A stretch of DNA of 64,000 bases from Patescibacteria group bacterium UBA5147 (GTDB taxonomy: Bacteria > Patescibacteriota > Saccharimonadia > UBA4664): positions 332,517 to 396,516 of the forward strand of contig DHXV01000001.1 of NCBI GenBank assembly GCA_002415345.1. The letters are read 5' to 3'. The notes below the pieces were generated by a model. It saw only the letters and a list, made by a program, of their open reading frames with translations. It was not told the DNA's origin and did no database searches. The position numbers and the translations under genes are program-made. Positions 2,056-60,317 of this stretch are shown piece by piece (the stretch's first letter is position 1; every line of letters starts with the position of its first letter).

Positions 2056-3948
2056 CTACGCTACCTCCCCGACTTCCTGGGCCGCGGCCGCGGCTTGCTC
2101 CTTGCGGGCGGCCTCAAGGGCCTTGGGGTCGGTGGAGATAAGCTGGGACTCGGTCTCGGAGGCCAGGATGCGGATGACGACGTGGTTGAGGCCGGCAAAG
2201 AACAGGCCCTCGCCCACAGGGAACTGGCTGAGGCGGTTCTTTTCCTCGCTGGTGAGCTTGAAGGTTTCGGCCACGATGTCGATGGCGCTCGGCGCCTGCT
2301 TGAGCAGCAGCTGAAGGGACGAGTTCGCCACCACGGCGCGGCCCATCTTGTTGCTCAGGAAGTCCTCGACGTCCTGGCTGATGGTTGTCAGGCCCAGGTA
2401 GTACTTACGGGCGCGCTTGGCCAGCGAGAACATGAAGGCGGCGGAGTCGTCGTACTTCATCAGCTGCCAGGCCTCGTCGATGATGAGGATGCGCTTGCGC
2501 TTGTCGCTTTTGACCTTGTTCCAGATGTAGTTGAGGACGATATACATCCCGACCGGGCGCAGTTCGTCTTCCAGGTCGCGGATGTTGAACACCAGGAAAG
2601 GGTTGTCGAGCTGGACGTTGGATTGTTCGCTGAAGATGCCGCTGAAGGTGCCGGTGGTGTACTTGCGCAGGCGCTGGGCCAGCGACGGGCCGTTGCCGGT
2701 CATTGAAGCCAACGTGTTGTAGAGGTCATTCATGGTGGGCGGCGTGGCGTTGTGGGTCAGAGGGTCCTTGGAGATACCGGCCCGGGCGTAGGTGTTGATG
2801 ATGGCCACGTCCATGTCGGCGTCCTCGGCCGGGGTCAGGGGCGAGGTCAGGGTGGCTCCGGTGGTTGAGTTGACCGTGGCGCCGCCCATCATCAGGCGCA
2901 GGAGGCCGTGGAGGGTAATGATGTTGGCCTGCAGGGCGTTGTCGGCCTCTTCCTGGTCGAAGACGCGGGGCAGGTCAAACGGGTTGATGCGGGTTTGGGA
3001 GGCCAGGCTCAGGCGCAGGTAGCTGCCGCCGACAGCGTCGCTCAGGGCGCGGTACTCGTTTTCCGGGTCGATAACGATGACCTCGACGCCCATCATCAGG
3101 CTGCGCAGGGCCTCTAATTTAATGGCGAAGGATTTACCGGCACCGGACTTGGCGAAGACCACCATGTTGGCGTTCTCCAAACTGAAGCGGTCGAACAACA
3201 CCAGGCCGTTGTTGTGGCGGTTGAGGCCGTAGAGGATGCCCTCGTTGCGGCTGAGTTCCGAGGAGGTGAAGGGGAAACTGGTGGAGAGGGCGCCGGTGTT
3301 CATGTTGCGGCTGATTTGCATCTGGTCGCTGGCCAGAGGTGTAGTGGTGTTAAAGCCCTGCTCCATCTGCAAGGTGGCCGGCTTGGTATAAATGAGCGAC
3401 TGGCCAAAGATGCCTTCGATCTTACGGCCGATCTGCGTGAGCTCGTCGATGCTGTTGGCGTACATCGTCAGGTACAGGCCGAAGCGGAAGAAGCGCTCCT
3501 CGCCCACCTGGAGCTTGTCGCGGAGTTCCTCGGCGTCTTGGATGGCCGCTTCCAATCCGGGGTCGCGGACACGGCCCTTTTCCTGGTTGATGGAATAAGA
3601 CGCCTCCAGTTGGCCGACCTTACGCTTAAGGTTATCAAGCACTACGCGGCTTTCGACCGGGTAGATGTAAAGGGAGATATCGATGATTTCGTCCAGGTTG
3701 ATGATGGGCGACAGCCAGCCGGTGAAGACTTGGCGGGGGTAACCGTAGACGTAGACGGTCTTGGCGTAACGCTTGCCAATGCGGATGTAGCCCGAATCCA
3801 CTTCAATTGAGGGCGGGGCGATGAGGTCGCGCATAGTGACTACGCCCTGACGGTAAATCAGCTCGGCTTCGCGCTGTTCGGCGGCGCGTTGTGACTCGGC
3901 CAGTGCACCCGGATCGATCTGTTCATTTTTTTTGCCAAATAGTGCCAT
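2056..3948 (-). CDS. virB4: Type IV secretion/conjugation ATPase, VirB4/TrbE/TraE family.
   Basis: Walker A FAKSGAGKS and Walker B RILIIDEAW (the DEAW is typical of VirB4). Size of 630 aa is typical of monoderm VirB4. The start overlaps the upstream stop in a TAATG. Confidence 0.85.
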   Translation of the reverse strand: MALFGKKNEQIDPGALAESQRAAEQREAELIYRQGVVTMRDLIAPPSIEVDSGYIRIGKRYAKTVYVYGYPRQVFTGWLSPIINLDEIIDISLYIYPVESRVVLDNLKRKVGQLEASYSINQEKGRVRDPGLEAAIQDAEELRDKLQVGEERFFRFGLYLTMYANSIDELTQIGRKIEGIFGQSLIYTKPATLQMEQGFNTTTPLASDQMQISRNMNTGALSTSFPFTSSELSRNEGILYGLNRHNNGLVLFDRFSLENANMVVFAKSGAGKSFAIKLEALRSLMMGVEVIVIDPENEYRALSDAVGGSYLRLSLASQTRINPFDLPRVFDQEEADNALQANIITLHGLLRLMMGGATVNSTTGATLTSPLTPAEDADMDVAIINTYARAGISKDPLTHNATPPTMNDLYNTLASMTGNGPSLAQRLRKYTTGTFSGIFSEQSNVQLDNPFLVFNIRDLEDELRPVGMYIVLNYIWNKVKSDKRKRILIIDEAWQLMKYDDSAAFMFSLAKRARKYYLGLTTISQDVEDFLSNKMGRAVVANSSLQLLLKQAPSAIDIVAETFKLTSEEKNRLSQFPVGEGLFFAGLNHVVIRILASETESQLISTDPKALEAARKEQAAAAAQEVGEVA

Positions 3949-16232: not shown

Positions 16233-16325
16233 GGAGAGGTACCCAAGTGGCTGAAGGGGCGGGTTTGCTAAACCTGTAGGGGGAAGTAATTCCCCGCGAG
16301 AGTTCGAATCTCTCTCTCTCCGCCA
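16233..16325 (+). tRNA. tRNA-Ser (anticodon GCT), class II long variable arm, CCA encoded.
   Basis: Hand-folded cloverleaf. T-arm GGTTCGAATCC. Anticodon loop TTGCTAA. Confidence 0.8.
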
Positions 16326-16327
16326 AG

Positions 16328-16360
16328 AAAAAGACCCGGTTTGTAGCCGGGTCTTTTTCT
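16328..16360. terminator. Bidirectional terminator (AAAAA-GACCCGGTTTGTAGCCGGGTC-TTTTTCTT) shared by the tRNA-Ser and the convergent 16369-18849 gene.
   Basis: 8-bp stem plus T-run. Confidence 0.8.
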
Positions 16361-16368
16361 TGGCTTAA

Positions 16369-18849
16369 TTAGTTGTCGTAAACAATCCCGGCCACTCTTT
16401 GGTCTTTTGAATCGATTTGGTCGGAACGGAAAGTAACGTTACCGTCCGGCTCAATAATAAAGGCGCCCTTCGTGGCAAACGGCGACCCCGCTACCGACAA
16501 GTTGTGCTCCTGGCTAAGTGTCTCGGCGATATTGCGCCCTCCCTTTGGTGTTCCGGCCGTGGAGCAGGCCTGGAGGATGACCCGGAAATTCGGTCCGAGA
16601 TGGCGGGTATAGTCGTTAGCCCGACCATGAATCTTAGCGCGTTTGGTATCCAGGTCGATAAAATCAGCAACATCTATCCCCTCATTAACGTCGTTCCTGC
16701 TCCCCAGCAGGAGGCCGTCCGGATTTGCATGGCCGTGGATGATAAGGTTTTTAACCGTGCCTTCTTTGAGCGGATCGCGGCCGTTGGCTCGGTCGCGGCT
16801 CCCAATCGCCACTAGGTCTTTGGCGAGCGAAGTCGAGTCACCTGCCTCAAAGTAAACCGCTGAGGAGCCGATTTGGCTGGTGAAATCCGAACCGACATCC
16901 TTAACCGCTCCGTTCCAGTCTGACTGTGCAGCAATAATCACATTTTCGTAAGTTGCGGAGCCGTCGTCCCAGCTGGCGAGTTGATTATGGAGTTGGCCAG
17001 GCCTGTAGCGGCGGAAGTTGCGTATGCCAAAAGTGTTTATGACCGAATTGAGCTCATTGGCCCCATAGCTGTCGGCGTAGTCGGTGAAAGCTTCGACTTG
17101 GCTCGCGATCATTTCGCACTGGTTTTTTTCTACGCTCATCAGCTCGCCCGAGCTTACTTCGGGCTTTGCGCCTGAATTGAAGCGCAACATAGAGAATGCC
17201 GAGAATTCGGTCCAGGTATCGAACATCTCCCGCGCGGCCTCATCGGTTAGGCCGGATTGGTCGAACTCGGCTGCCAGGGTCGGCATATCCTCAAACCTGG
17301 GCCTCAGCGCGCGGTCCGCTGAGCTGGCCAACCCGGATGCGGCTACAGGAACTAAACCGCGCTCAAAGGCCTTGGCGTATTCGCTGTTGATCTTCCAGTT
17401 GGTGCAGAATCTTTCAACCTTGGCGTCGAGCTGCTCGCTGTCGTGATGGGCTTCAACCAGGCTCTTGAGGGAGAGGAACGATTTACTATCGATGGAACCG
17501 GAATTTATATCCTGGGCAGACAGGCTACGGGCAGTTTCAATGAAGGCGTTGGCGGTTGCCTGCGGTTCCGGGCCGGTAGCCAAGGCGTCGACAAACATGT
17601 TTTTTAACTGGGGTGAGGCGTCCGCCAGAAGCGGCTTCGCTACCAGCAGGGCCTTGGCAACCTCAAGTGGCTGATTGCCTCTGATGACGCGGTCGGCAAA
17701 ATCGGGGCTGCCATCAAAATCAGTGCCGACGATGTCCAAACCCTGCCGGATGACGTCGCAGGTTCGCGTTGGCTCTGCCTCATCACGGACGCGTCGGGCA
17801 ATCAAATCCAGGTACGGCGTAGCCTGCGGGTCCGCAGCCGCATCTTTGAGGGCGATAGCGAAACCGGGACTGAACTCGATAAGATCAGTGGGGTATTTAT
17901 CGCAAAGCGCTGCAAACTGCCTGATAGTCTGCGCGTTCGGTTCGCCGAAGATCGCTTCGCTGGCGCGGAGGGCGACCACAGGATCAGCAAACGGGGCCAC
18001 GCTCTTAATGGCGTTTTGACGCGCTGCCGATGACGGGTTATCCGGTTCAATCGTTGCCAGGGCTTCGGCAGCCAGTCGGGCTGAGTCGAGGTAGATCTTG
18101 CGATCGGCCGGGTCCTTGAGCTTGGTCGCGTTGGGAACAAATTCCCCGGCGTAGTTACCTAAGCCGCGGTCAACAACCCCGCTAATCAATTCCATTCGTA
18201 CGGCAATATCGCCCTCAAAGTTTGAAGCTTCACGCTTGGCTGCATCCGGGTAGGCAGGCAATTCTTGCCAGATTTTCTGCGGGACGGTCGAGGCTGAATC
18301 CGGCGAACCCGCAGTTTCGATTAAGATATTGGCGCTTTGAGCATCCAGACCGTTACCGGTGATTGTCGTAAAGAGCTCGCGGTGTTTTTCTTCGCTGAGG
18401 CGGGCAATTGTAGTCCTTACCCGCTCAGCTTCTTCCGGTTCAAGGGACGCGTTGGTCAGTGGAAATTCGATTACTTTAGCTTCGCTAGGGGAGGCAGACA
18501 CCAAACCCTTGGCGGCTTCAATCTGGCCTTGTCTTACAAGGAGAATCAAGGTGGTGTCGAGTTTATACTTGGCTCCGTCGTTGTCTCGGTAAGGACTCCC
18601 CACCTCTCTGGTAGTACAGAGCGCGGCCAGATGGGTCTTCGCAGCCTCAGGATTCGCCGCGATAGCTTCGATAATTGCTGTCGACAGGTCTTCCGGGGTG
18701 GCGGATTCGCGCAGGCCGGCGATACTTGATTCAAGGCTTTCGGCAGCCTTTTGTTGCTCTTGGATTGCTAACAGATTTTGGGCCAATTCAGCACCAGATA
18801 AGGAAGGGGCTTCTTGATTGGTGGGTAACGGCTCTGCTTCAGTGTTCAT
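16369..18849 (-). CDS. Large (about 826 aa) protein with a helical/repeat N-terminal region and a C-terminal caspase-like (CHAT / clan CD peptidase) domain.
   Basis: C-terminal candidate dyad: His in LIIHGHANPDG and Cys in RVILQACSTAG (compare the caspase QACRG motif). The track start at 18897 falls inside the tRNA at 18870-18955, so the Met17 start at 18849 is used. Confidence 0.45.
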   Translation of the reverse strand: MNTEAEPLPTNQEAPSLSGAELAQNLLAIQEQQKAAESLESSIAGLRESATPEDLSTAIIEAIAANPEAAKTHLAALCTTREVGSPYRDNDGAKYKLDTTLILLVRQGQIEAAKGLVSASPSEAKVIEFPLTNASLEPEEAERVRTTIARLSEEKHRELFTTITGNGLDAQSANILIETAGSPDSASTVPQKIWQELPAYPDAAKREASNFEGDIAVRMELISGVVDRGLGNYAGEFVPNATKLKDPADRKIYLDSARLAAEALATIEPDNPSSAARQNAIKSVAPFADPVVALRASEAIFGEPNAQTIRQFAALCDKYPTDLIEFSPGFAIALKDAAADPQATPYLDLIARRVRDEAEPTRTCDVIRQGLDIVGTDFDGSPDFADRVIRGNQPLEVAKALLVAKPLLADASPQLKNMFVDALATGPEPQATANAFIETARSLSAQDINSGSIDSKSFLSLKSLVEAHHDSEQLDAKVERFCTNWKINSEYAKAFERGLVPVAASGLASSADRALRPRFEDMPTLAAEFDQSGLTDEAAREMFDTWTEFSAFSMLRFNSGAKPEVSSGELMSVEKNQCEMIASQVEAFTDYADSYGANELNSVINTFGIRNFRRYRPGQLHNQLASWDDGSATYENVIIAAQSDWNGAVKDVGSDFTSQIGSSAVYFEAGDSTSLAKDLVAIGSRDRANGRDPLKEGTVKNLIIHGHANPDGLLLGSRNDVNEGIDVADFIDLDTKRAKIHGRANDYTRHLGPNFRVILQACSTAGTPKGGRNIAETLSQEHNLSVAGSPFATKGAFIIEPDGNVTFRSDQIDSKDQRVAGIVYDN

Positions 18850-18869
18850 AACGGTAGTATAGCGATTTT

Positions 18870-18955
18870 TGGCGGAGGGGGTGGGATTCGAACCCACGGA
18901 GCTTTCGCTCGCCGGTTTTCAAGACCGGAGCACTCGGCCACTATGCGACCCCTCC
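18870..18955 (-). tRNA. tRNA-Ser (anticodon TGA), long variable arm.
   Basis: Reverse complement reads GGAGGGGTCGCATAGTGG...CTTGAAA...GGTTCGAATCCCACCCCCTCCGCCA. Confidence 0.8.
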
Positions 18956-19074
18956 GTGCCAACCTATTGTAGTTACCTGGCCGATATTTTCAATCCTGTT
19001 CTTACCCAACCATAACCATTGTATTGTACAATCGCTGCGCTATCGGCCATAATGAGAGCGAATAAGGACTACTC

Positions 19075-19692
19075 ATGGACGATTCCAACGTCTCCCCTAC
19101 CCAGCCTAAAGATCAGCAAGATACGGCTTCCTCGGACAACGAAGCGGCAGCCGAAGTTTTAGAGGCGCCTAAGGACGGGGCCGCCGAGGAGGTGGAGAAC
19201 CAGCAGCCTGAGCTCCAGGAGCAGGAGCAAGAGCCGGAGCCGGATTTCACCTGGCAGGCCAGCGAGTACGTCCATCATCATAAGGGAGCCGGTTGGTATG
19301 CCAGCCTGGCAGGAATTATCGCCCTGTTAATAATCGTTGCCGTGTTCTATAAATCATGGGTCAGCATAGGTGTTTTTCTAGCCATGGGTGCGGCCATTGC
19401 CGTATACGCGCAGAAGCCGCCGCGGGTTCTGACCTACGAATTGGATTCCCAAAGCGTGACGATTGAAGGTAAGGCGTACCCGTACAAGAACTTCCGTTCG
19501 TTCGGCGTCATCAGCGACATCGAATGGCACACCATCGACCTTGAACCAACCCAGCGCTTCATGCCCCGCCTGACGGTTCTGTTCAGTGATGAAGATTTTG
19601 ACTCAATTGTGGATCACATGTCGCTCCATCTCCCCCGCGCCGACCGCCAGCCGGACGTGATTGAGCGGCTCACCCGCTATTTACGCTTTTAG
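19075..19692 (+). CDS. Hypothetical membrane protein with an acidic N-terminus (E/Q/D-rich), two TM helices and a C-terminal domain.
   Basis: 205-aa ORF with a single coding frame and hydrophobic segments AGIIALLIIVAVFY / IGVFLAMGAAIAVYA. Confidence 0.5.
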   Translation: MDDSNVSPTQPKDQQDTASSDNEAAAEVLEAPKDGAAEEVENQQPELQEQEQEPEPDFTWQASEYVHHHKGAGWYASLAGIIALLIIVAVFYKSWVSIGVFLAMGAAIAVYAQKPPRVLTYELDSQSVTIEGKAYPYKNFRSFGVISDIEWHTIDLEPTQRFMPRLTVLFSDEDFDSIVDHMSLHLPRADRQPDVIERLTRYLRF

Positions 19693-19744
19693 CCGCCCGG
19701 GCTCTTCACGCACAGCCTCAAATATGCTATCTTCATTAGGTCGT

Positions 19745-19820
19745 GCGCCTGTAGCTCAGTGGATAGAGCATCGCCTTGCGGTGGCGGGGGTCGCAGGTTC
19801 GAGTCTTGCCAGGCGCACCA
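19745..19820 (+). tRNA. tRNA-Arg (anticodon read as GCG; verify).
   Basis: 76-nt cloverleaf GCGCCTGTAGCTCAGTGGATAGAGC...TTGCGGT...GGTTCGAGTC...CACCA. Confidence 0.7.
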
Positions 19821-19919
19821 AAGAAATTACCTCACTAACGTGGGGTTATTTCTTTTTTATGCTAAGTTGTATTGGTTGATAAGCCTTTTCATATCGAAAT
19901 AACTTATGCTTACATATCC

Positions 19920-20009
19920 GGAGAGGTCGCATAGTGGACTAGTGCGCCGCACTCGAAATGCGGTGAGGCCGCAAGGCTTCCGAGAGTTCGAATCTCTCCC
20001 TCTCCGCCA
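19920..20009 (+). tRNA. tRNA-Ser (anticodon CGA), long variable arm.
   Basis: GGAGAGGTCGCATAGTGG...CTCGAAA...GTTCGAATCTCTCCCTCTCCGCCA. Confidence 0.8.
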
Positions 20010-34774: not shown

Positions 34775-35560
34775 ATGAGCATTCAGAACGGTTCACCTGA
34801 AACGATGGTCCAAGGGATAGTAACCACACCTGGCATCACCGTGCAGGTCACGAGCCTGTTTGAAGAACTGGCAAGCCAGTCGCATCTGTATGGCAAGTCC
34901 GAAGCCGTTAATTATCTTGAGGAAGTTTATGCGAACGGGAGCCGGATGGAGCCGATGTCGAGACTGGCATTACTATTGCTTCATGCCGGTCAGCATGCCA
35001 AGTTGCAGACTCTTTTAGACTCTGACAGGGAAGCCTTGCATGGTGGGCGACTTGATCATGAGCAACGTATTGAAACAAGCAATCATTACGAGACCCTTCG
35101 CCATGCGGCGTGTGAGTACAACCACGCAGTACGTAGCTTTATTGAGTCTCACCGCGAAGACGTTACTCGCGACCAACTGGTCGACTGGCTCTCCCAGGCC
35201 AGCCTGGGCAATCACCGTTGGGCCGATGGGGAAGTAACCGGGGCTACCTCGGAAATCGCCCTGCACGCCGCCCTTATGGGTATGCCGGAGCTGGCCGGTC
35301 TCCGCTATGCCACGCTCGAAGAAGACTTGCATGGTTTTGACTTTACGGCCGAGTGGCAGGGCCAGGAGGTAACTATCGATGCCAAGACGGGTCGCTATGC
35401 TCCAATCGTTGAGCGCATGAGAGGGCACCGCCATCTGGAAATATACGTCCCGCGGGACGCAATGGAAGGCTTCCGGCTGACTCGCCACGGTCTGGATTCC
35501 TTGCGGCGTGAAATGCGCGTAGCCTTGGCGCAGGCGGCCCGCCTTCAAATGGCCATTTAG
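34775..35560 (+). CDS. Hypothetical protein (261 aa) with a possible C-terminal PD-(D/E)xK-like motif.
   Basis: GFDFTAEWQGQEVTIDAKTG shows the spacing D-x12-(V)DAK. Weak and unverified. Confidence 0.45.
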   Translation: MSIQNGSPETMVQGIVTTPGITVQVTSLFEELASQSHLYGKSEAVNYLEEVYANGSRMEPMSRLALLLLHAGQHAKLQTLLDSDREALHGGRLDHEQRIETSNHYETLRHAACEYNHAVRSFIESHREDVTRDQLVDWLSQASLGNHRWADGEVTGATSEIALHAALMGMPELAGLRYATLEEDLHGFDFTAEWQGQEVTIDAKTGRYAPIVERMRGHRHLEIYVPRDAMEGFRLTRHGLDSLRREMRVALAQAARLQMAI

Positions 35561-36433
35561 CACATTTCAGGCGTTGGGTTGATAATTAGTATTGACATTA
35601 GTAACCGCAAGTGCTACGCTTCGACACATCTACTTTTTGAGGATAACCTCGAGGTAGTCCATTGACAGATTAGCAAGTCAGAACCAAAGACCTTGGAGCG
35701 GGGTCGCGGCATGTGGTAGCGGACCCGCCCACTCAAGGAAAACGAAAGCCTCTAACGAGGCGACTATCGAAAGGATCGGTGCATATGGCTCGCTTCGGCA
35801 GCCAGGAGTTACCGTAGTTGTCTGATAGGGTGATGGGCGCTACGCTCCTCACTGAAGAAAACAACGATTCGATGGGAGTAGTGATACACCATGCGCGGTT
35901 TTTTCAAAGACTGCTCACGCGCGACTTACGTCCTCGGCAATTAGACGAAGACGATTGCTCGTCCTATACATAGCCCCTTTTAAGGGAGCTGCTCTTGTTG
36001 AAACGGATCTGTTAATTCAGTGACCCTGCACAGGCGGGCTGCAAAGCCTTAATGTACAAAGCTCGGTCATCCCGTTCAACGAGACATTAAACCAGGCCAT
36101 GACGGCCGAACCCGCAGCCAGCGGACTTCTATCGGGACCTCCGGGTAACGCTAGTAACGAATGGCATTCGTGGAATGGCGGTAACGTTGACCAACGACTT
36201 TACCCTTAGGGGAATATTGTCCGGGGTCTTTCATCCTACACCGCGCGCCACACTGGTATACAACTGAATATACAACTGAATATGGTTTGTATAACTGTTT
36301 TGCCGCAGGGGCGGGGATGTGTTGAGCGCAGCTGCATAAGCCGCCCTCCACATCCCCGCCCAAAACGACTTGCTAATCTGTCCCAACCCGCAATTATCCC
36401 AACGCCTTAACGGGCGTTTTCTGATATATAGGG

Positions 36434-36462
36434 TTGACAAAACATTATACTTATGCTACTAT
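36434..36462 (+). promoter_or_regulatory. Near-consensus sigma70 promoter TTGACA-N17-TACTAT, preceded by a small hairpin+T-run insulator (about 36401-36420).
   Basis: Perfect -35, 17-nt spacer, 4/6 -10 (TACTAT). Drives the 36611 gene, giving a 5' UTR of about 140 nt. Confidence 0.6.
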
Positions 36463-36523
36463 GTTATATTCCCTTCCAATACAGGGAATACCTTGACAAC
36501 ATATGCAACCAATTTCCCCGAGG

Positions 36524-36569
36524 CACTCTGCGTCGGGCCGCTCAAAATTAAGCGGTCTGACGCAGAGTG
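36524..36569 (+). promoter_or_regulatory. Long 5'-UTR stem-loop: 11-bp perfect inverted repeat (CACTCTGCGTC...GACGCAGAGTG) enclosing an inner 5-bp stem (CCGCT/AGCGG) with an 8-nt loop; about 40 nt upstream of the ATG at 36611.
   Basis: Read directly. Function (attenuator, riboregulator or protein site) unknown. Confidence 0.5.
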
Positions 36570-36610
36570 GCTCAACCTGAGACTCTCTCAACGCCCGGAA
36601 GGGGCACATC

Positions 36611-37309
36611 ATGAGCATTGCCAGCGCTAGTCCCTCTATGTTCTCTCACAAGCCCAAGCGACCGGCCCTTGTCATGAGTGTCCCCACAACCAAGAAGCCC
36701 ACTCCTCAGCCTCATCGCGAGGTCAAGCCGTGGGACGACCGTGACAAGGTCATCGCAATCGTCGACAGTTTCCTCGGCAAGTACAGGAGCCGCATCTCTG
36801 AGCTCCGTACCTGGCAGCGTAAGCTGCTGGTCCAGCCTGTTCCTGCTGATGCGAATCGGCAGCTGCGGGAGAGCTACTTCAAGGCCGTCAAGTGTGCCGT
36901 GGAACAGTTCAATGGCATGCGCCCCGCACCCGTGCGGGTGGCGAAGTCTCGCCGGTATGCTCCATCGATGCCTGTGGTGACGCCCAGCGCTCCACACCCG
37001 GCAACGGTAGAGGATCACACGTCAATCATGTACACCGTTTACGGCAGCGGTCAGGCGACCCTGTCTACCGGTAAGGCAACGGTTCGTGACATCAGGTCCG
37101 CCCCCAAGAAGGTGGACAACAACGGTTACGGCAAGACTCGTCGGGAACTCACATCTGATGAGCGGGCCACCGCTGATGCGCAGAGCGCGACCGCCATGGC
37201 CAAGAAGGAGGAGATGTTCGCCAGGAAGACCATACCGGTCGTCAAGGCGGACAAGGGATCCTCCAAGAATGGCAAGAAGGGCGCCAAGAAGGACTCTGCC
37301 ATGAAGTAG
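36611..37309 (+). CDS. Hypothetical basic protein (232 aa) with a Lys-rich C-terminus (KADKGSSKNGKKGAKKDSAMK).
   Basis: ORF with a strong promoter. No family recognised. Confidence 0.55.
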   Translation: MSIASASPSMFSHKPKRPALVMSVPTTKKPTPQPHREVKPWDDRDKVIAIVDSFLGKYRSRISELRTWQRKLLVQPVPADANRQLRESYFKAVKCAVEQFNGMRPAPVRVAKSRRYAPSMPVVTPSAPHPATVEDHTSIMYTVYGSGQATLSTGKATVRDIRSAPKKVDNNGYGKTRRELTSDERATADAQSATAMAKKEEMFARKTIPVVKADKGSSKNGKKGAKKDSAMK

Positions 37310-37649
37310 CTCAGGCTGCTTCGGTTCCCAGGAACACAACCGGGCGGGCGACGAGAGTCGCCTGCCCACCCGCATCTACAATCCATCAAGGCATACGTTG
37401 TCTCTCTTCTGAAGTGCTCACGCGAACATTTCAATAGGGGACTTAGCTAAAATTACAATTGACACGGCATGGCCGTGCCTGTATTTTTGGCATAAGTACT
37501 AAGTACGCTCTTTGAAATTCACAGTTCAATCGTGGAAAGAAAAGGGCAACCCCAATCGGGCGACGACTCTATTCCTAGCGTAATGCTATGGATGGACGCG
37601 TCGGTTTTTTATTTCAATCTACCTCACGGAAATAGAAACGGAGAACGTC

Positions 37650-37814
37650 ATGCCACAGCAACGGATTCAAATTTCCAAACGCATTCGCCGCCGCGGCGGG
37701 GGAGATGACACGCCAATTGATGGCATCAACACAGGTGAGGCGGAGCGGGCGAGGCAAACATCCTCCAACGCAGCCAGAGCCATTGCCGAAATCAATCGGC
37801 TGATCGGGCGGTGA
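37650..37814 (+). CDS. Small basic ORF (54 aa: MPQQRIQISKRIRRRGGGDDTPIDGINTGEAERARQTSSNAARAIAEINRLIGR).
   Basis: GGAGA RBS 7 nt upstream. Below the track cutoff. Confidence 0.35.
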   Translation: MPQQRIQISKRIRRRGGGDDTPIDGINTGEAERARQTSSNAARAIAEINRLIGR

Positions 37815-41253: not shown

Positions 41254-41610
41254 TTAGCGCCGTGCGTTGCGATTGAACAGGAGGCGATGCAGCCCAAGGT
41301 TTGCCTGGTTGATCTGCTCACTGCAGGCAAGTTCCAATACGCTCGTACCTGCGATAGTTAAGTCGAATATTTTGCGTTGGAAGGGTGAGGCGGTACCTGG
41401 TTTGATATCGCATTCCTGGACATATCCGTATTCTCTCAGTCGGTTTAACGTCTTGTAGACGGAGGATGCCTGTATATGACTGTAGCCGGTGTCTATATTG
41501 ATTTGCACGGCAATCCCATATCCGTGCATGGGGGTTTTACATAGGGCTATTAAAGTGAGGGTGTCTAGTTGTGTCAGTGTAGGCGCATCGTCCGGGGAGA
41601 GTTGTTTCAT
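41254..41610 (-). CDS. padR: PadR-family transcriptional regulator, first gene of the padR-ABC operon.
   Basis: Winged-helix pattern LTLIALCKTPMHGYGIAVQI...YSHIQASSVYKTLNRLREYGYV. 118 aa. Confidence 0.75.
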   Translation of the reverse strand: MKQLSPDDAPTLTQLDTLTLIALCKTPMHGYGIAVQINIDTGYSHIQASSVYKTLNRLREYGYVQECDIKPGTASPFQRKIFDLTIAGTSVLELACSEQINQANLGLHRLLFNRNARR

Positions 41611-41618
41611 ATGCTAAT

Positions 41619-41671
41619 TATAGTCCAGTGGACTATAAAAAAGCCACAATGTTATAGTCCAGTGGACTATA
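41619..41671. promoter_or_regulatory. 53-bp double-palindrome operator module, copy B (TATAGTCCAGTGGACTATA-AAAAAGCCACAATGT-TATAGTCCAGTGGACTATA), starting 9 nt upstream of the padR ATG; embeds TGGACT-N18-TATAGT promoter-like hexamers.
   Basis: Two perfect 19-bp palindromes with a 15-bp spacer. Likely autoregulatory PadR operators. Confidence 0.65.
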
Positions 41672-41757
41672 ATCGGATAAATGAGTTCCGCAAAGAAGGG
41701 AGAAAAAGGGGGACATTAATCAACCGCCAGCCCAATCGATAAAATGCCCAAGAAACC

Positions 41758-44179: not shown

Positions 44180-44267
44180 GGAGGGGTCGCCTAGTGGCCT
44201 ATGGCGCTCGCTTGGAAAGCGGGTTGGGTGCAAGCCCTCGAGAGTTCGAATCTCTCTCCCTCCGCCA
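44180..44267 (+). tRNA. tRNA-Ser (anticodon GGA), long variable arm.
   Basis: GGAGGGGTCGCCTAGTGG...TTGGAAA...GTTCGAATCTCTCTCCCTCCGCCA. Confidence 0.8.
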
Positions 44268-48540: not shown

Positions 48541-48775
48541 TGTTTCTCGGCGCTCAAGTTCGTCACTCTAGCCACACAGGCTCAACATCCCTTATCCACT
48601 GCCCGCCGCCAGGCGGGCCTTATTTTGTTTACGTAAGGTTGATTAGTAACCACAATCCGTGCCTGCAAATGCATCGGCATTGGCTGCATTGTAGTTTACC
48701 CGAGCAATAAAATCTGCTATAACAATAACCTGCGAGACCGTCTCGTTGTATCCTCACAAATTGGAAGTGATTTGG

Positions 48776-48928
48776 CGTGCCCGACATATGCAGACATTGC
48801 AAAACGAGGCTTCAGAAATGTCCTGATTGCGGTGGATGGGGTCATACCACATCCTTTCTTTCAAGGTTCACCTGCAATACGTGCGGCGGTTCAGGCAAGC
48901 TGTGCCCGACGCATGGAAAAAACACGTA
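48776..48928 (+). CDS. Mini-ORF (about 50 aa, GTG start) encoding a DnaJ-type zinc-finger repeat peptide: VPDICRHCKTRLQKCPDCGGWGHTTSFLSRFTCNTCGGSGKLCPTHGKNT.
   Basis: Two exact CxxCxGxG motifs (CPDCGGWG, CNTCGGSG) plus CxxC and CxxHG. GGAAG about 9 nt upstream. Overlaps the track ORF 48772-48963, which is in another frame with a low-complexity product. Coordinates approximate (+/-2). Confidence 0.45.
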
Positions 48929-48996
48929 ATGCCCGCCCGCCCAATTTCTCAAAGAATTCCTAACCAAGAAGCCCTACCGTCAGGTAGGGCTTAGTT

Positions 48997-53954: not shown

Positions 53955-54310
53955 AAGCAATATGTGAACCGCGATGTGGTTTGAGCTTAGCTGATACGGA
54001 AACGTATCGGCGGATCTCCTGCCCTTTCACCTCTCACATCTTGTTGTCTGCGGTACGAAAGGGCGGGTTCAATCATGAACCTTTAACCTTGGCGTAACCG
54101 CATTGCTTGATTGCACCTGACGTTCGCGCCAATTTGGCGCTTCGTGAGCACCTGTTCCACCCGGTGTCTTAGACCCCGTTCCGGCTTAGCCGTACTAGTC
54201 GGCTTCCACCGTTCGGCCGCGTCTTTCGCGATTTATCTTGGGCGTGTACACCGTCCATCTCGTGTCGCGACGCCCACTTAACCCTGTGCGAGCTGCAGCT
54301 CGCATACATC

Positions 54311-59784: not shown

Positions 59785-59986
59785 TTTCTTCAAGCAGGGC
59801 CTCCAGCTCGCTGATGAGCTGGCCGACGGCCAGGAGTTCGGTTTGTGCCAGCCAGGCATTGCCCGGGGTGGTAGCGTAGTCGCGCAGCCGTGCCGAACGG
59901 TCGGTGATTTCTTCGATCATTTCCAATAGTTGGACGCGTAAGGGGTCGATTTGAGGTTTTGCCATATCTATCAGATTACAGGTCAC
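59753..59986 (-). CDS. Small helical hypothetical protein (70-77 aa), convergently overlapping the holA 3' end.
   Basis: ORF. GTG at 59986 or ATG at 59965. Confidence 0.4.
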   Translation of the reverse strand: MTCNLIDMAKPQIDPLRVQLLEMIEEITDRSARLRDYATTPGNAWLAQTELLAVGQLISELEALLEEIKQFDAENGY

Positions 59987-60208
59987 AGGCGATGAGGTCT
60001 ACGGATGGGTCTGTTTTGGTGTACCCTGCTGCTTATTTTGTGAGTTTCGGGTATTTCTTATAAGTGTGAGTGGGCCTGGTTGTGGCTGGGCCGGCGGCTG
60101 CTGAATCTGTTTCTACTCTTCTAGTCGTAGGTCGATTTTGTATCATGGGGCGATCTACGGCTGTATTGTCGCATTGTCCTACTCCTATCGGCGACTCGAG
60201 TAGCCGAT

Positions 60209-60261
60209 TATAGTCCAGTGGACTATAAAAAAGCCCCATTATTATAGTCCACTGGACTATA
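60209..60261. promoter_or_regulatory. 53-bp double-palindrome operator module, copy C (TATAGTCCAGTGGACTATA-AAAAAGCCCCATTAT-TATAGTCCACTGGACTATA), about 225 nt upstream of the 59753-59986 gene; a flanking imperfect palindrome ATCGGCGACTCGAGTAGCCGAT lies at 60186-60207.
   Basis: Same architecture and near-identical sequence as copy B. Confidence 0.6.
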
Positions 60262-60317
60262 AGTTAGGTAAGCAGTAGTCCCTCCTGATGCGGCGCTCTA
60301 CCTCAACCGCACGTAAT

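Follow-up and report, generated by a model that had tools for sequence, protein, structure and literature searches.

The noncoding segment and its setting

The 64,000-nt stretch of the genome of Patescibacteria group bacterium UBA5147 (class Saccharimonadia) analyzed here, hereafter the window, carries a 1050-bp segment (positions 35561-36610) that is free of open reading frames (ORFs) in a crude ORF map. As the original prediction, made from the DNA letters, had recognized, the segment is an outlier: it is the largest such gap in the 64-kb window, where the next largest measures 574 bp and the median is 78 bp. We read it, at a probability of about 0.6, as an independent, lineage-specific noncoding RNA (ncRNA) gene whose predicted transcript, Unit 1, is clamped at its ends, with the promoter and leader belonging to the next gene (Unit 2) downstream. 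Locally, groES-groEL and two small hypothetical genes precede a gene for a protein of 261 amino acids (aa), after which come the segment, a 232-aa gene, two small ORFs and pgi. The succession of groEL, the 261-aa gene and pgi is conserved across the class. The longest ORFs within the segment are one of 86 aa, which has a TTG start and runs into the next gene, and one of 70 aa on the minus strand. Its GC content (50.7%) is lower than in the window (56.1%) and in the two flanking genes (56-60%), and sub-blocks span 34% to 53%. Hence, the claim that the segment is AT-richer stands, but the range of 43-50% GC originally given is slightly too low for the segment as a whole. The features that frame the segment and Unit 1 are the following:

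34775-35560: 261-aa hypothetical ORF, the stop of which borders the segment upstream
35592-35620, + strand: P1, a sigma-70-type promoter (TTGACA at 35592-35597, 17-nt spacer, TACGCT at 35615-35620)
35627-36422, + strand: Unit 1, a predicted ncRNA of 796 nt, from the invariant CAUCUAC to the U-run past the terminator hairpin
35630-35657, + strand: 5'-terminal hairpin of Unit 1, with a CUAC...GUAG base around GAGG-AUAA-CCUC
35664-35679, + strand: left arm of the closing helix, GACAGAUUAGCAAGUC, a perfect 16-bp complement of 36367-36382
36309-36361, + strand: GC-rich hairpin (E hairpin), GGGCGGGGAUGUG...CACAUCCCCGCCC, with a 13-bp perfect stem that extends to 20-nt arms
36367-36382, + strand: right arm of the closing helix, GACUUGCUAAUCUGUC, pairing with 35664-35679
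36383-36400, + strand: conserved single-stranded tail of 18 nt, CCAACCCGCAAUUAUCCC
36401-36422, + strand: terminator-like hairpin AACGCC-UUAACG-GGCGUU followed by UUCU, kept in homologs
36611-37309: 232-aa hypothetical ORF, the ATG of which (36611) borders the segment downstream

Conserved promoter and 5' end of Unit 1

The relatives used for comparison were loci fetched around homologs of the 261-aa protein. Homologs of Unit 1 lie beside the 261-aa gene in at least 11 other Saccharimonadia lineages (L015, L016, L025, L034, L035, L036, L037, L038, L046, L047 and L049) and range from 471 to 913 nt, as compared to 796 nt in the window. We inferred the ends of Unit 1 from CATCTAC at the 5' side and the 3' hairpin at the other, and delimited the unit in the same way in the 11 other loci.

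The TTGACA-N17-TACGCT site that had been singled out as promoter-like is indeed present at 35592-35620 and is invariant in relatives. In eight homologous loci, TTGACA, the 17-nt spacer and TGnTA (with a TAnnnT -10 element) are invariant, as are the nine bases CATCTACTT at the inferred start of Unit 1, downstream of P1. The TG of this extended -10 element lies within the spacer at 35612-35613 in the window. The pattern likewise occurs in L046, L047 and L049, with TCGACA as a variant in L046. A promoter scan missed P1 because TACGCT fits TATAAT at only three of the six positions. The 5'-terminal hairpin begins ~4 nt into the predicted transcript, and its CUAC/GUAG base is kept in most homologs around an enclosed hairpin that differs in sequence and length. 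A scan of a sequence collection with the promoter/5'-end pattern retrieved six metagenome contigs, which turned out to be chance matches that had neither the other modules nor the neighboring proteins, and the same pattern had no match in a viral collection.

An imperfect 18-nt inverted repeat has one arm in the sequence before P1 (35566-35583) and the other in the Unit 1 tail and terminator (36393-36410). We rejected it as an RNA helix, since the left arm precedes the promoter and only GATAATT/AATTATC recurs in relatives. The sequences just before P1 and before P2, the promoter of the next gene, are alike (GGCGTT..GATAATTAGTATTGACA and GGCGTTTTCTGATATATAGGGTTGACA, respectively), and we read the repeat as probably reflecting this resemblance.

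A covarying helix predicted to join the two ends

The strongest signal in the segment, which the original prediction did not mention, is the perfect inverted repeat formed by 35664-35679 and 36367-36382. At 16 bp, it is the longest perfect inverted repeat in the window, and an arithmetic estimate of the chance expectation for one of this length is ~3e-4 pairs per 1.6 kb. The resulting closing helix joins positions ~40 nt from the 5' end and ~40 nt from the 3' end and encloses the whole interior. In the homologs it spans 12-16 bp, with GACA always first and UGUC always last. Changes on both sides occurred at 11 of the 16 pairs across 10 homologs, and 79% of the cells were paired (27-39% with slid partners), values that none of 500 shuffles reached. 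The alignment used for this test was gapless and held two sequences out of register, and the values hold even so. In L016 and L025, the arms are wholly different yet complementary. A covarying helix that links positions 700 nt apart argues that Unit 1 is one molecule.

The elements that accompany the right arm of the closing helix are conserved as well. The 13-bp perfect stem at 36309-36361, already seen in the original prediction, belongs to a hairpin found in all 10 complete homologs, in which it has 10-22 stacked pairs and a predicted energy of -35 to -48 kcal/mol. It is placed a few to ~15 nt ahead of the right arm in all 10 and carries compensatory changes in L038, L047, L016 and L025. 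After the right arm comes the tail CCAACCCGCAAUUAU, which has at most one substitution in L016, L034, L035 and L047 and three in L046, and is recognizable in L015 and L025. The terminal hairpin and its U-rich run are present in 10/10 homologs and, as with the closing helix, the stems of L016 and L025 are fully different but complementary. A terminator scan did not flag the hairpin at 36401-36422. Compensatory changes affect 8 of 18 pairs in the GC-rich hairpin and terminator taken together. Comparative alignment, which the original prediction had suggested, revealed compensated pairs in the closing helix, the GC-rich hairpin and the terminator. A covariance model of the 3' module recovered a single copy at each Unit 1 locus, that of the window included, and gave no hit in the 16 further loci searched.

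Watson-Crick pairs make up nearly all of the closing helix (105 of 112 cells, with one G.U and two A.C). An inverted repeat that is perfect, and nearly all Watson-Crick across species, would also suit an element acting at the DNA level, in which the 16-bp repeats would be the recombination or transposition sites of an invertible segment or of a miniature inverted-repeat element. The many assemblies that break inside Unit 1 also favor such an element, as does the changed location of the unit in L025, where it precedes the 261-aa gene and directly follows groEL. We nevertheless consider it highly unlikely. The 14 contigs from the window strain (14/14) are 100% identical and share a single orientation, and all relatives are co-oriented. 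Contig breaks fall in the interior, the GC-rich hairpin or the promoter rather than at the repeats. The unit is found once in the 64-kb window and once per locus, scans of the flanking ORFs revealed no recombinase or transposase, and blastn searches of phage and plasmid collections gave no match to the segment. Furthermore, 37 nt and 40 nt separate the repeats from the ends of Unit 1, leaving the promoter, 5' hairpin, tail and terminator outside the repeats, and an invertible segment is disfavored by the position of both promoters outside the repeats. The single copy, the single orientation in every contig and the lack of phage or plasmid matches also speak against the other reading offered in the original prediction, a decayed mobile-element scar, as do some interior blocks that are better conserved than the neighboring protein gene.

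Assemblies that break inside Unit 1 (~35616-36440) are those of loci L006-L009, L013, L014, L034, L037, L045, L048, L049 and L050. Three contig ends lie within the GC-rich hairpin and two at promoters, and in sample DRR331386 the whole of Unit 1 is missing between two contigs. The breaks suggest strain-level heterogeneity or a drop-out of coverage at the GC-rich hairpin.

Noncoding pattern, known families and folding

The substitution pattern of Unit 1 is that of a noncoding sequence. When aligned to L036, mismatches by codon phase number 91/79/84 and only 4 of 20 gaps have a length divisible by three, as compared to 47/23/123 in the neighboring gene, where every gap length is divisible by three. 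The same holds over five pairwise comparisons: the neighboring gene is strongly enriched in third-position mismatches and nearly all of its gaps are multiples of three, whereas in Unit 1 the phases are flat and the share of such gaps ranges from about a quarter to below one half. Stops interrupt all six frames in all members, and a blastx search of Unit 1 against local proteins returned nothing at E < 0.01. We also considered and rejected a 36-codon ORF (36099-36209), because its start is ATG, TTG or CTG across relatives, it has no ribosome-binding site, its stop position shifts and its substitutions are mostly non-synonymous.

Searches for known RNAs were equally negative. At the gathering threshold, Rfam 15 identified only 5 tRNAs in the whole window, and a search of nine homologous loci yielded only one tRNA. 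Relaxing the search of 35400-36800 to E values up to 10 added only chance matches to microRNA, snoRNA and lncRNA models (14-24 bits against thresholds of 45-195), and ARAGORN placed tRNAs only elsewhere in the window. The failure of the original prediction to match RNase P, tmRNA, SRP or 6S RNA by eye was borne out by this covariance-model check, which assigned no family, introns and riboswitches included, and the literature searched contains no description of such an RNA. The predicted folding energy has a z-score of -6.4 relative to shuffles.

A modular interior

Between the arms of the closing helix, Unit 1 is modular, with five recognizable blocks (M1 to M5), each present in a different subset of members. 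These blocks and a tandem repeat are as follows:

35784-35811, + strand: M1, with UAUGGC, a UUCG-loop hairpin and GCCAGGAGUUA (window, L036, L038, L034, L037 and L049)
35880-35922, + strand: M2, GUGAUAC..AUGCGCGG..CUGCUCACGCGCG, which includes the GCGCGGTTTTTT run
36037-36048, + strand: M3, hairpin GGCU-GCAA-AGCC with a GNRA-type loop (window, L036 with a GAAA loop, L015 and L016)
36094-36184, + strand: M4, the most conserved interior block, ~90 nt (UGACGGCCGAACCCGCAGCCAGCGG...)
36244-36252, + strand: M5, the CGCGCCACA motif (window, L034, L035, L046 and L047)
36257-36280, + strand: tandem 12-mer TATACAACTGAA x2, within an AT-rich spacer of 34% GC

The inner stem of M1 differs among members (UCGC.. 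vs AGUCA..UGAC) around a GGC/GCC closure that is kept. M2 occurs in the window, L036, L037 (twice) and L049, and partially in L015 and L016. M4 is 95.6% identical to L035 and 86.8% identical to L046, as compared to 76.2% and 64.2%, respectively, for the DNA of the adjacent 261-aa gene; conservation of this degree may reflect either strong selection or recent exchange. The tandem 12-mer reported in the original prediction is present, yet the duplication is specific to the window strain and the spacer around it is poorly conserved in relatives. Relative to the window, the center of the unit is shortened by ~300-330 nt in L035 and L046 and by ~290 nt in L038, and L047 is longer. By eye, hairpins of the 5' domain show a few compensatory changes (such as GCCUC/GAGGC vs GCCCC/GGGGC, and CGGCGG/CCGCCG vs CGACGG/CCUCGUCG). 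The longest family member (L047, 913 nt) contains an imperfect tandem repeat, GAGUCUGCGUUUCCCAUGAGUCGCCGUCUGCGAUUCCCAUGAGACGCCGUCUGCGAG, at positions 3340-3410 of its locus.

A second predicted bracketed unit downstream

The final ~190 bp of the segment (36423-36610) carry the promoter and structured 5' leader of the next transcript, Unit 2, which encodes the 232-aa protein. Its features are the following:

36434-36462, + strand: P2 promoter, TTGACA, 17 nt, TACTAT, with TG before the -10 element (10 of 12 consensus matches)
36468-36489, + strand: 5'-terminal hairpin of Unit 2, AUUCCCU...AGGGAAU
36495-36506, + strand: left arm of the Unit 2 bracket, GACAACAUAUGC (GACAAC...), pairing with 37391-37402 with one A.C mismatch here
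36520-36573, + strand: long leader hairpin of the 232-aa gene, with 26-nt arms and the conserved loop UCAAAAUUAAG
37391-37402, + strand: right arm of the Unit 2 bracket, GCAUACGUUGUC (GUUGUC), downstream of the 232-aa ORF

P2 is conserved in L015, L016, L035, L036, L038, L047 and L050. The bracket is perfect or compensated in L015, L016, L025, L026, L030, L032, L033, L035, L036 and L038, and in those ten other loci it encloses a protein gene and has many compensatory changes. RNAalifold detected both-side changes at 10 pairs of the leader hairpin in 7 homologs, and the best Rfam hits to this hairpin were chance matches to microRNAs far below threshold. The coding region of Unit 2 has a small hairpin over the ribosome-binding site. 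Under a highly conserved leader, the Unit 2 proteins are extremely divergent, measure 185-377 aa, have basic C-terminal tails and are almost without database relatives. The right arm of the Unit 2 bracket is followed by a conserved tail, UCUCUUCUGAAG. Farther downstream, a conserved stretch (37403-37650) that also occurs in L046, L015, L036 and L038 includes two hairpins: one is AAUUGACA, and the other is terminator-like, carries a U-run and overlaps a further promoter-like site, TTGACA-17-TATTTT. These elements are followed by two ORFs, one of 54 codons and one that is DUF7455 zinc-ribbon-like.

The separate, strongly conserved promoter ahead of the 232-aa gene bears on whether Unit 1 is one RNA. 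The segment could instead produce several short RNAs, such as the 290-nt one ending at GCGCGGUUUUUU that the original prediction had outlined, or a long cis-acting leader of the 232-aa gene. A T-run (35899-35904) does follow a GC-rich stretch, most loci have Unit 1 immediately before the next gene, and the modest U-run of its terminator makes read-through conceivable. However, although the GCGCGGTTTTTT run is present at 35893-35904, it is probably no terminator and hence not the end of a 290-nt RNA, because no stable hairpin precedes it, the terminator scan did not flag it and relatives do not keep the T-run. In addition to having P2 interposed, Unit 1 persists in L046, where the body of the next unit is lost, and is not adjacent to the next gene in L025. 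We therefore regard a division into short RNAs or a leader function as quite improbable. By comparison across loci, L046 and L025 (where Unit 1 is upstream of the 261-aa gene) support the independence of Unit 1 from the next gene.

The two units are alike in layout, each having a promoter, a 5' hairpin that begins ~4-5 nt from the predicted 5' end, a YYUGACA left arm, a payload, a GC-rich hairpin, a ...UGUC right arm, a tail and a terminator. The shared order of elements raises the alternative that Unit 1 is the relic of a protein-coding cassette like Unit 2, which would have lost its frame and left a decaying promoter-to-terminator shell without RNA function. The indel-rich, mosaic interior without a universal module and the extremely fast evolution of Unit 2 proteins are in line with such a decay. 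Yet at least 470 nt have been kept in 11 or more lineages with streamlined genomes, the promoter and terminator are intact, conservation of interior blocks exceeds that of the adjacent coding gene, and there is neither residual protein similarity nor a frame signal. Nor do the two units share significant sequence similarity: we rejected a sequence paralogy of Unit 1 and Unit 2 because local alignments of their 5' frames, 3' frames and interiors scored no better than shuffles. Altogether, a coding relic seems unlikely. We also dropped the idea that Unit 1 pairs with the Unit 2 leader in trans, for which RNAduplex, run with unrestricted duplex length, returned meaningless full-length duplexes.

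Neighboring genes and other features of the window

Identical copies of both flanking proteins are present on permafrost and soil metagenome contigs and on GCA_002429365.1. Homologs of the 261-aa protein are found only in Candidatus Saccharimonadia/Patescibacteria assemblies, and sequence searches of Pfam, NCBIfam, PADLOC and PDB gave no match for the neighboring proteins. The 261-aa protein has a confident predicted structure (pLDDT 92), a helical bundle with a small beta sheet, without a significant fold match in the PDB. Its invariant GxDF...DAKTG residues are reminiscent of the PD-(D/E)xK nuclease motif, a match to Holliday junction resolvase was weak and non-significant, and the gene has a tandem paralog in several relatives.

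The crude ORF map also revealed gaps of 350-530 bp at 1618-2055, 41331-41757, 48541-48996, 53955-54310 and 59785-60317, none of which matched an Rfam family at the gathering threshold. Four tRNA-Ser genes (GCU, UGA, CGA and GGA) and one tRNA-Arg gene lie at 16233-20009 and 44180-44267, three of the former clustering with tRNA-Arg within 4 kb.

Unit 1 as a candidate family of end-clamped RNAs

Unit 1 probably represents a new family of large ncRNAs with clamped ends in a subclade of Saccharimonadia, absent from Rfam and from the literature searched. Its position and architecture are kept in at least 11 lineages and combine an invariant promoter, covarying helices, a terminator hairpin and a noncoding pattern, which supports the candidate ncRNA of the original prediction. 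Unit 1 has several features expected of an ncRNA gene (a conserved promoter and terminator of its own and no protein-coding signature) and of a structured RNA (compensated base pairs in the closing helix, the GC-rich hairpin and the terminator), and a long-range duplex near both predicted transcript ends, as in a processing stem of the RNase III type. We assign it to the + strand because of the promoter and the U-rich 3' run. The balance of G.U over A.C pairs mildly favors the same strand (9 vs 4 in the hairpins, 1 vs 2 in the clamp).

Several observations temper this assignment. That Unit 1 is transcribed at all, and where its transcript would begin and end, we deduce from consensus signals and conservation. 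The near-pure Watson-Crick composition of the closing helix means that it is not proof of pairing in a + strand RNA over pairing at the DNA level, and the folding z-score is equal on both strands. The U-run of the terminator is weak in some members (L016 and L025). Automated alignments of the interior, which are sequence-based and poor, gave little covariation (a few events) and, with no universal interior module either, a single conserved functional core is not evident. Lastly, because the relatives were gathered via the neighboring protein, the distribution is biased, and eight more distant loci with the 261-aa protein show no such unit.

Should Unit 1 give rise to a discrete transcript, both of its ends could be shielded from exonucleases by the 5' hairpin, the end-to-end clamp and the 3' hairpins. 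Alternatively, the clamp could be a site for double-strand-specific processing, as in ribosomal RNA precursors. The resulting RNA would be long-lived and would work in trans through its variable modules, which would most plausibly bind proteins or other RNAs. More speculatively, Saccharimonadia may have a class of 'bracketed' units in which the GACA...UGUC helix and the 5' and GC-rich 3' hairpins are a dedicated signal for processing or stabilization, possibly yielding end-protected or circular RNAs and perhaps bound by a lineage-specific protein such as the 261-aa one. Unit 1 would then be a module-exchanging scaffold, and its sister units would carry the hypervariable, basic-tailed proteins. 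We consider this extension unlikely.

Bacteria of the candidate phyla radiation have very small, tightly packed genomes and, to our knowledge, their regulatory RNAs are almost unexplored. With a size of 0.5-0.9 kb and a distribution over many Saccharimonadia lineages, such an ncRNA would join the short list of large bacterial RNAs of unknown function as a new family. The occurrence of the same clamp around a rapidly evolving neighbor gene points to a shared, lineage-specific way of stabilizing or processing transcripts.

Comparison with known systems

Among the large bacterial RNAs, OLE, GOLLD, ROOL, HEARO and raiA resemble Unit 1 in being ncRNAs of several hundred nucleotides with their own promoter and terminator (predicted in Unit 1), in having many hairpins with GNRA and UUCG loops, and in residing within one lineage in an unusually long intergenic gap. 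Unit 1 matches none of these Rfam models at E values up to 10. Moreover, the core of the known ornate RNAs is fixed and covaries heavily, whereas Unit 1 varies almost two-fold in length (471-913 nt) and has no universal interior module.

The messages of type I toxins such as hok provide a precedent for long-distance pairing between 5' and 3' regions (fbi/tac). As in hok, the 5' region of Unit 1 is predicted to pair with the 3' region of the same transcript to form a closed and stable molecule, and the Unit 2 bracket encloses a coding region with a small hairpin over the ribosome-binding site. Unlike hok, the locus lacks both a small hydrophobic toxin ORF and an antisense RNA gene; Unit 1 is without a conserved ORF, and the products of Unit 2 are proteins of 185-377 aa with basic tails.

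The outermost elements have parallels as well. In Gram-positive transcripts, 5'-terminal stem-loops protect from RNase J/Y, and Units 1 and 2 both have a hairpin ~4-5 nt from a 5' end whose position is inferred from the promoter. The processing stems that flank ribosomal RNA precursors, which are substrates of RNase III, resemble the closing helix: a 12-16-bp, long-range and near-pure Watson-Crick helix just inside both ends that encloses the body of the RNA. In Unit 1, however, the enclosed RNA is non-ribosomal, and next door the same kind of bracket also encloses a protein-coding message.

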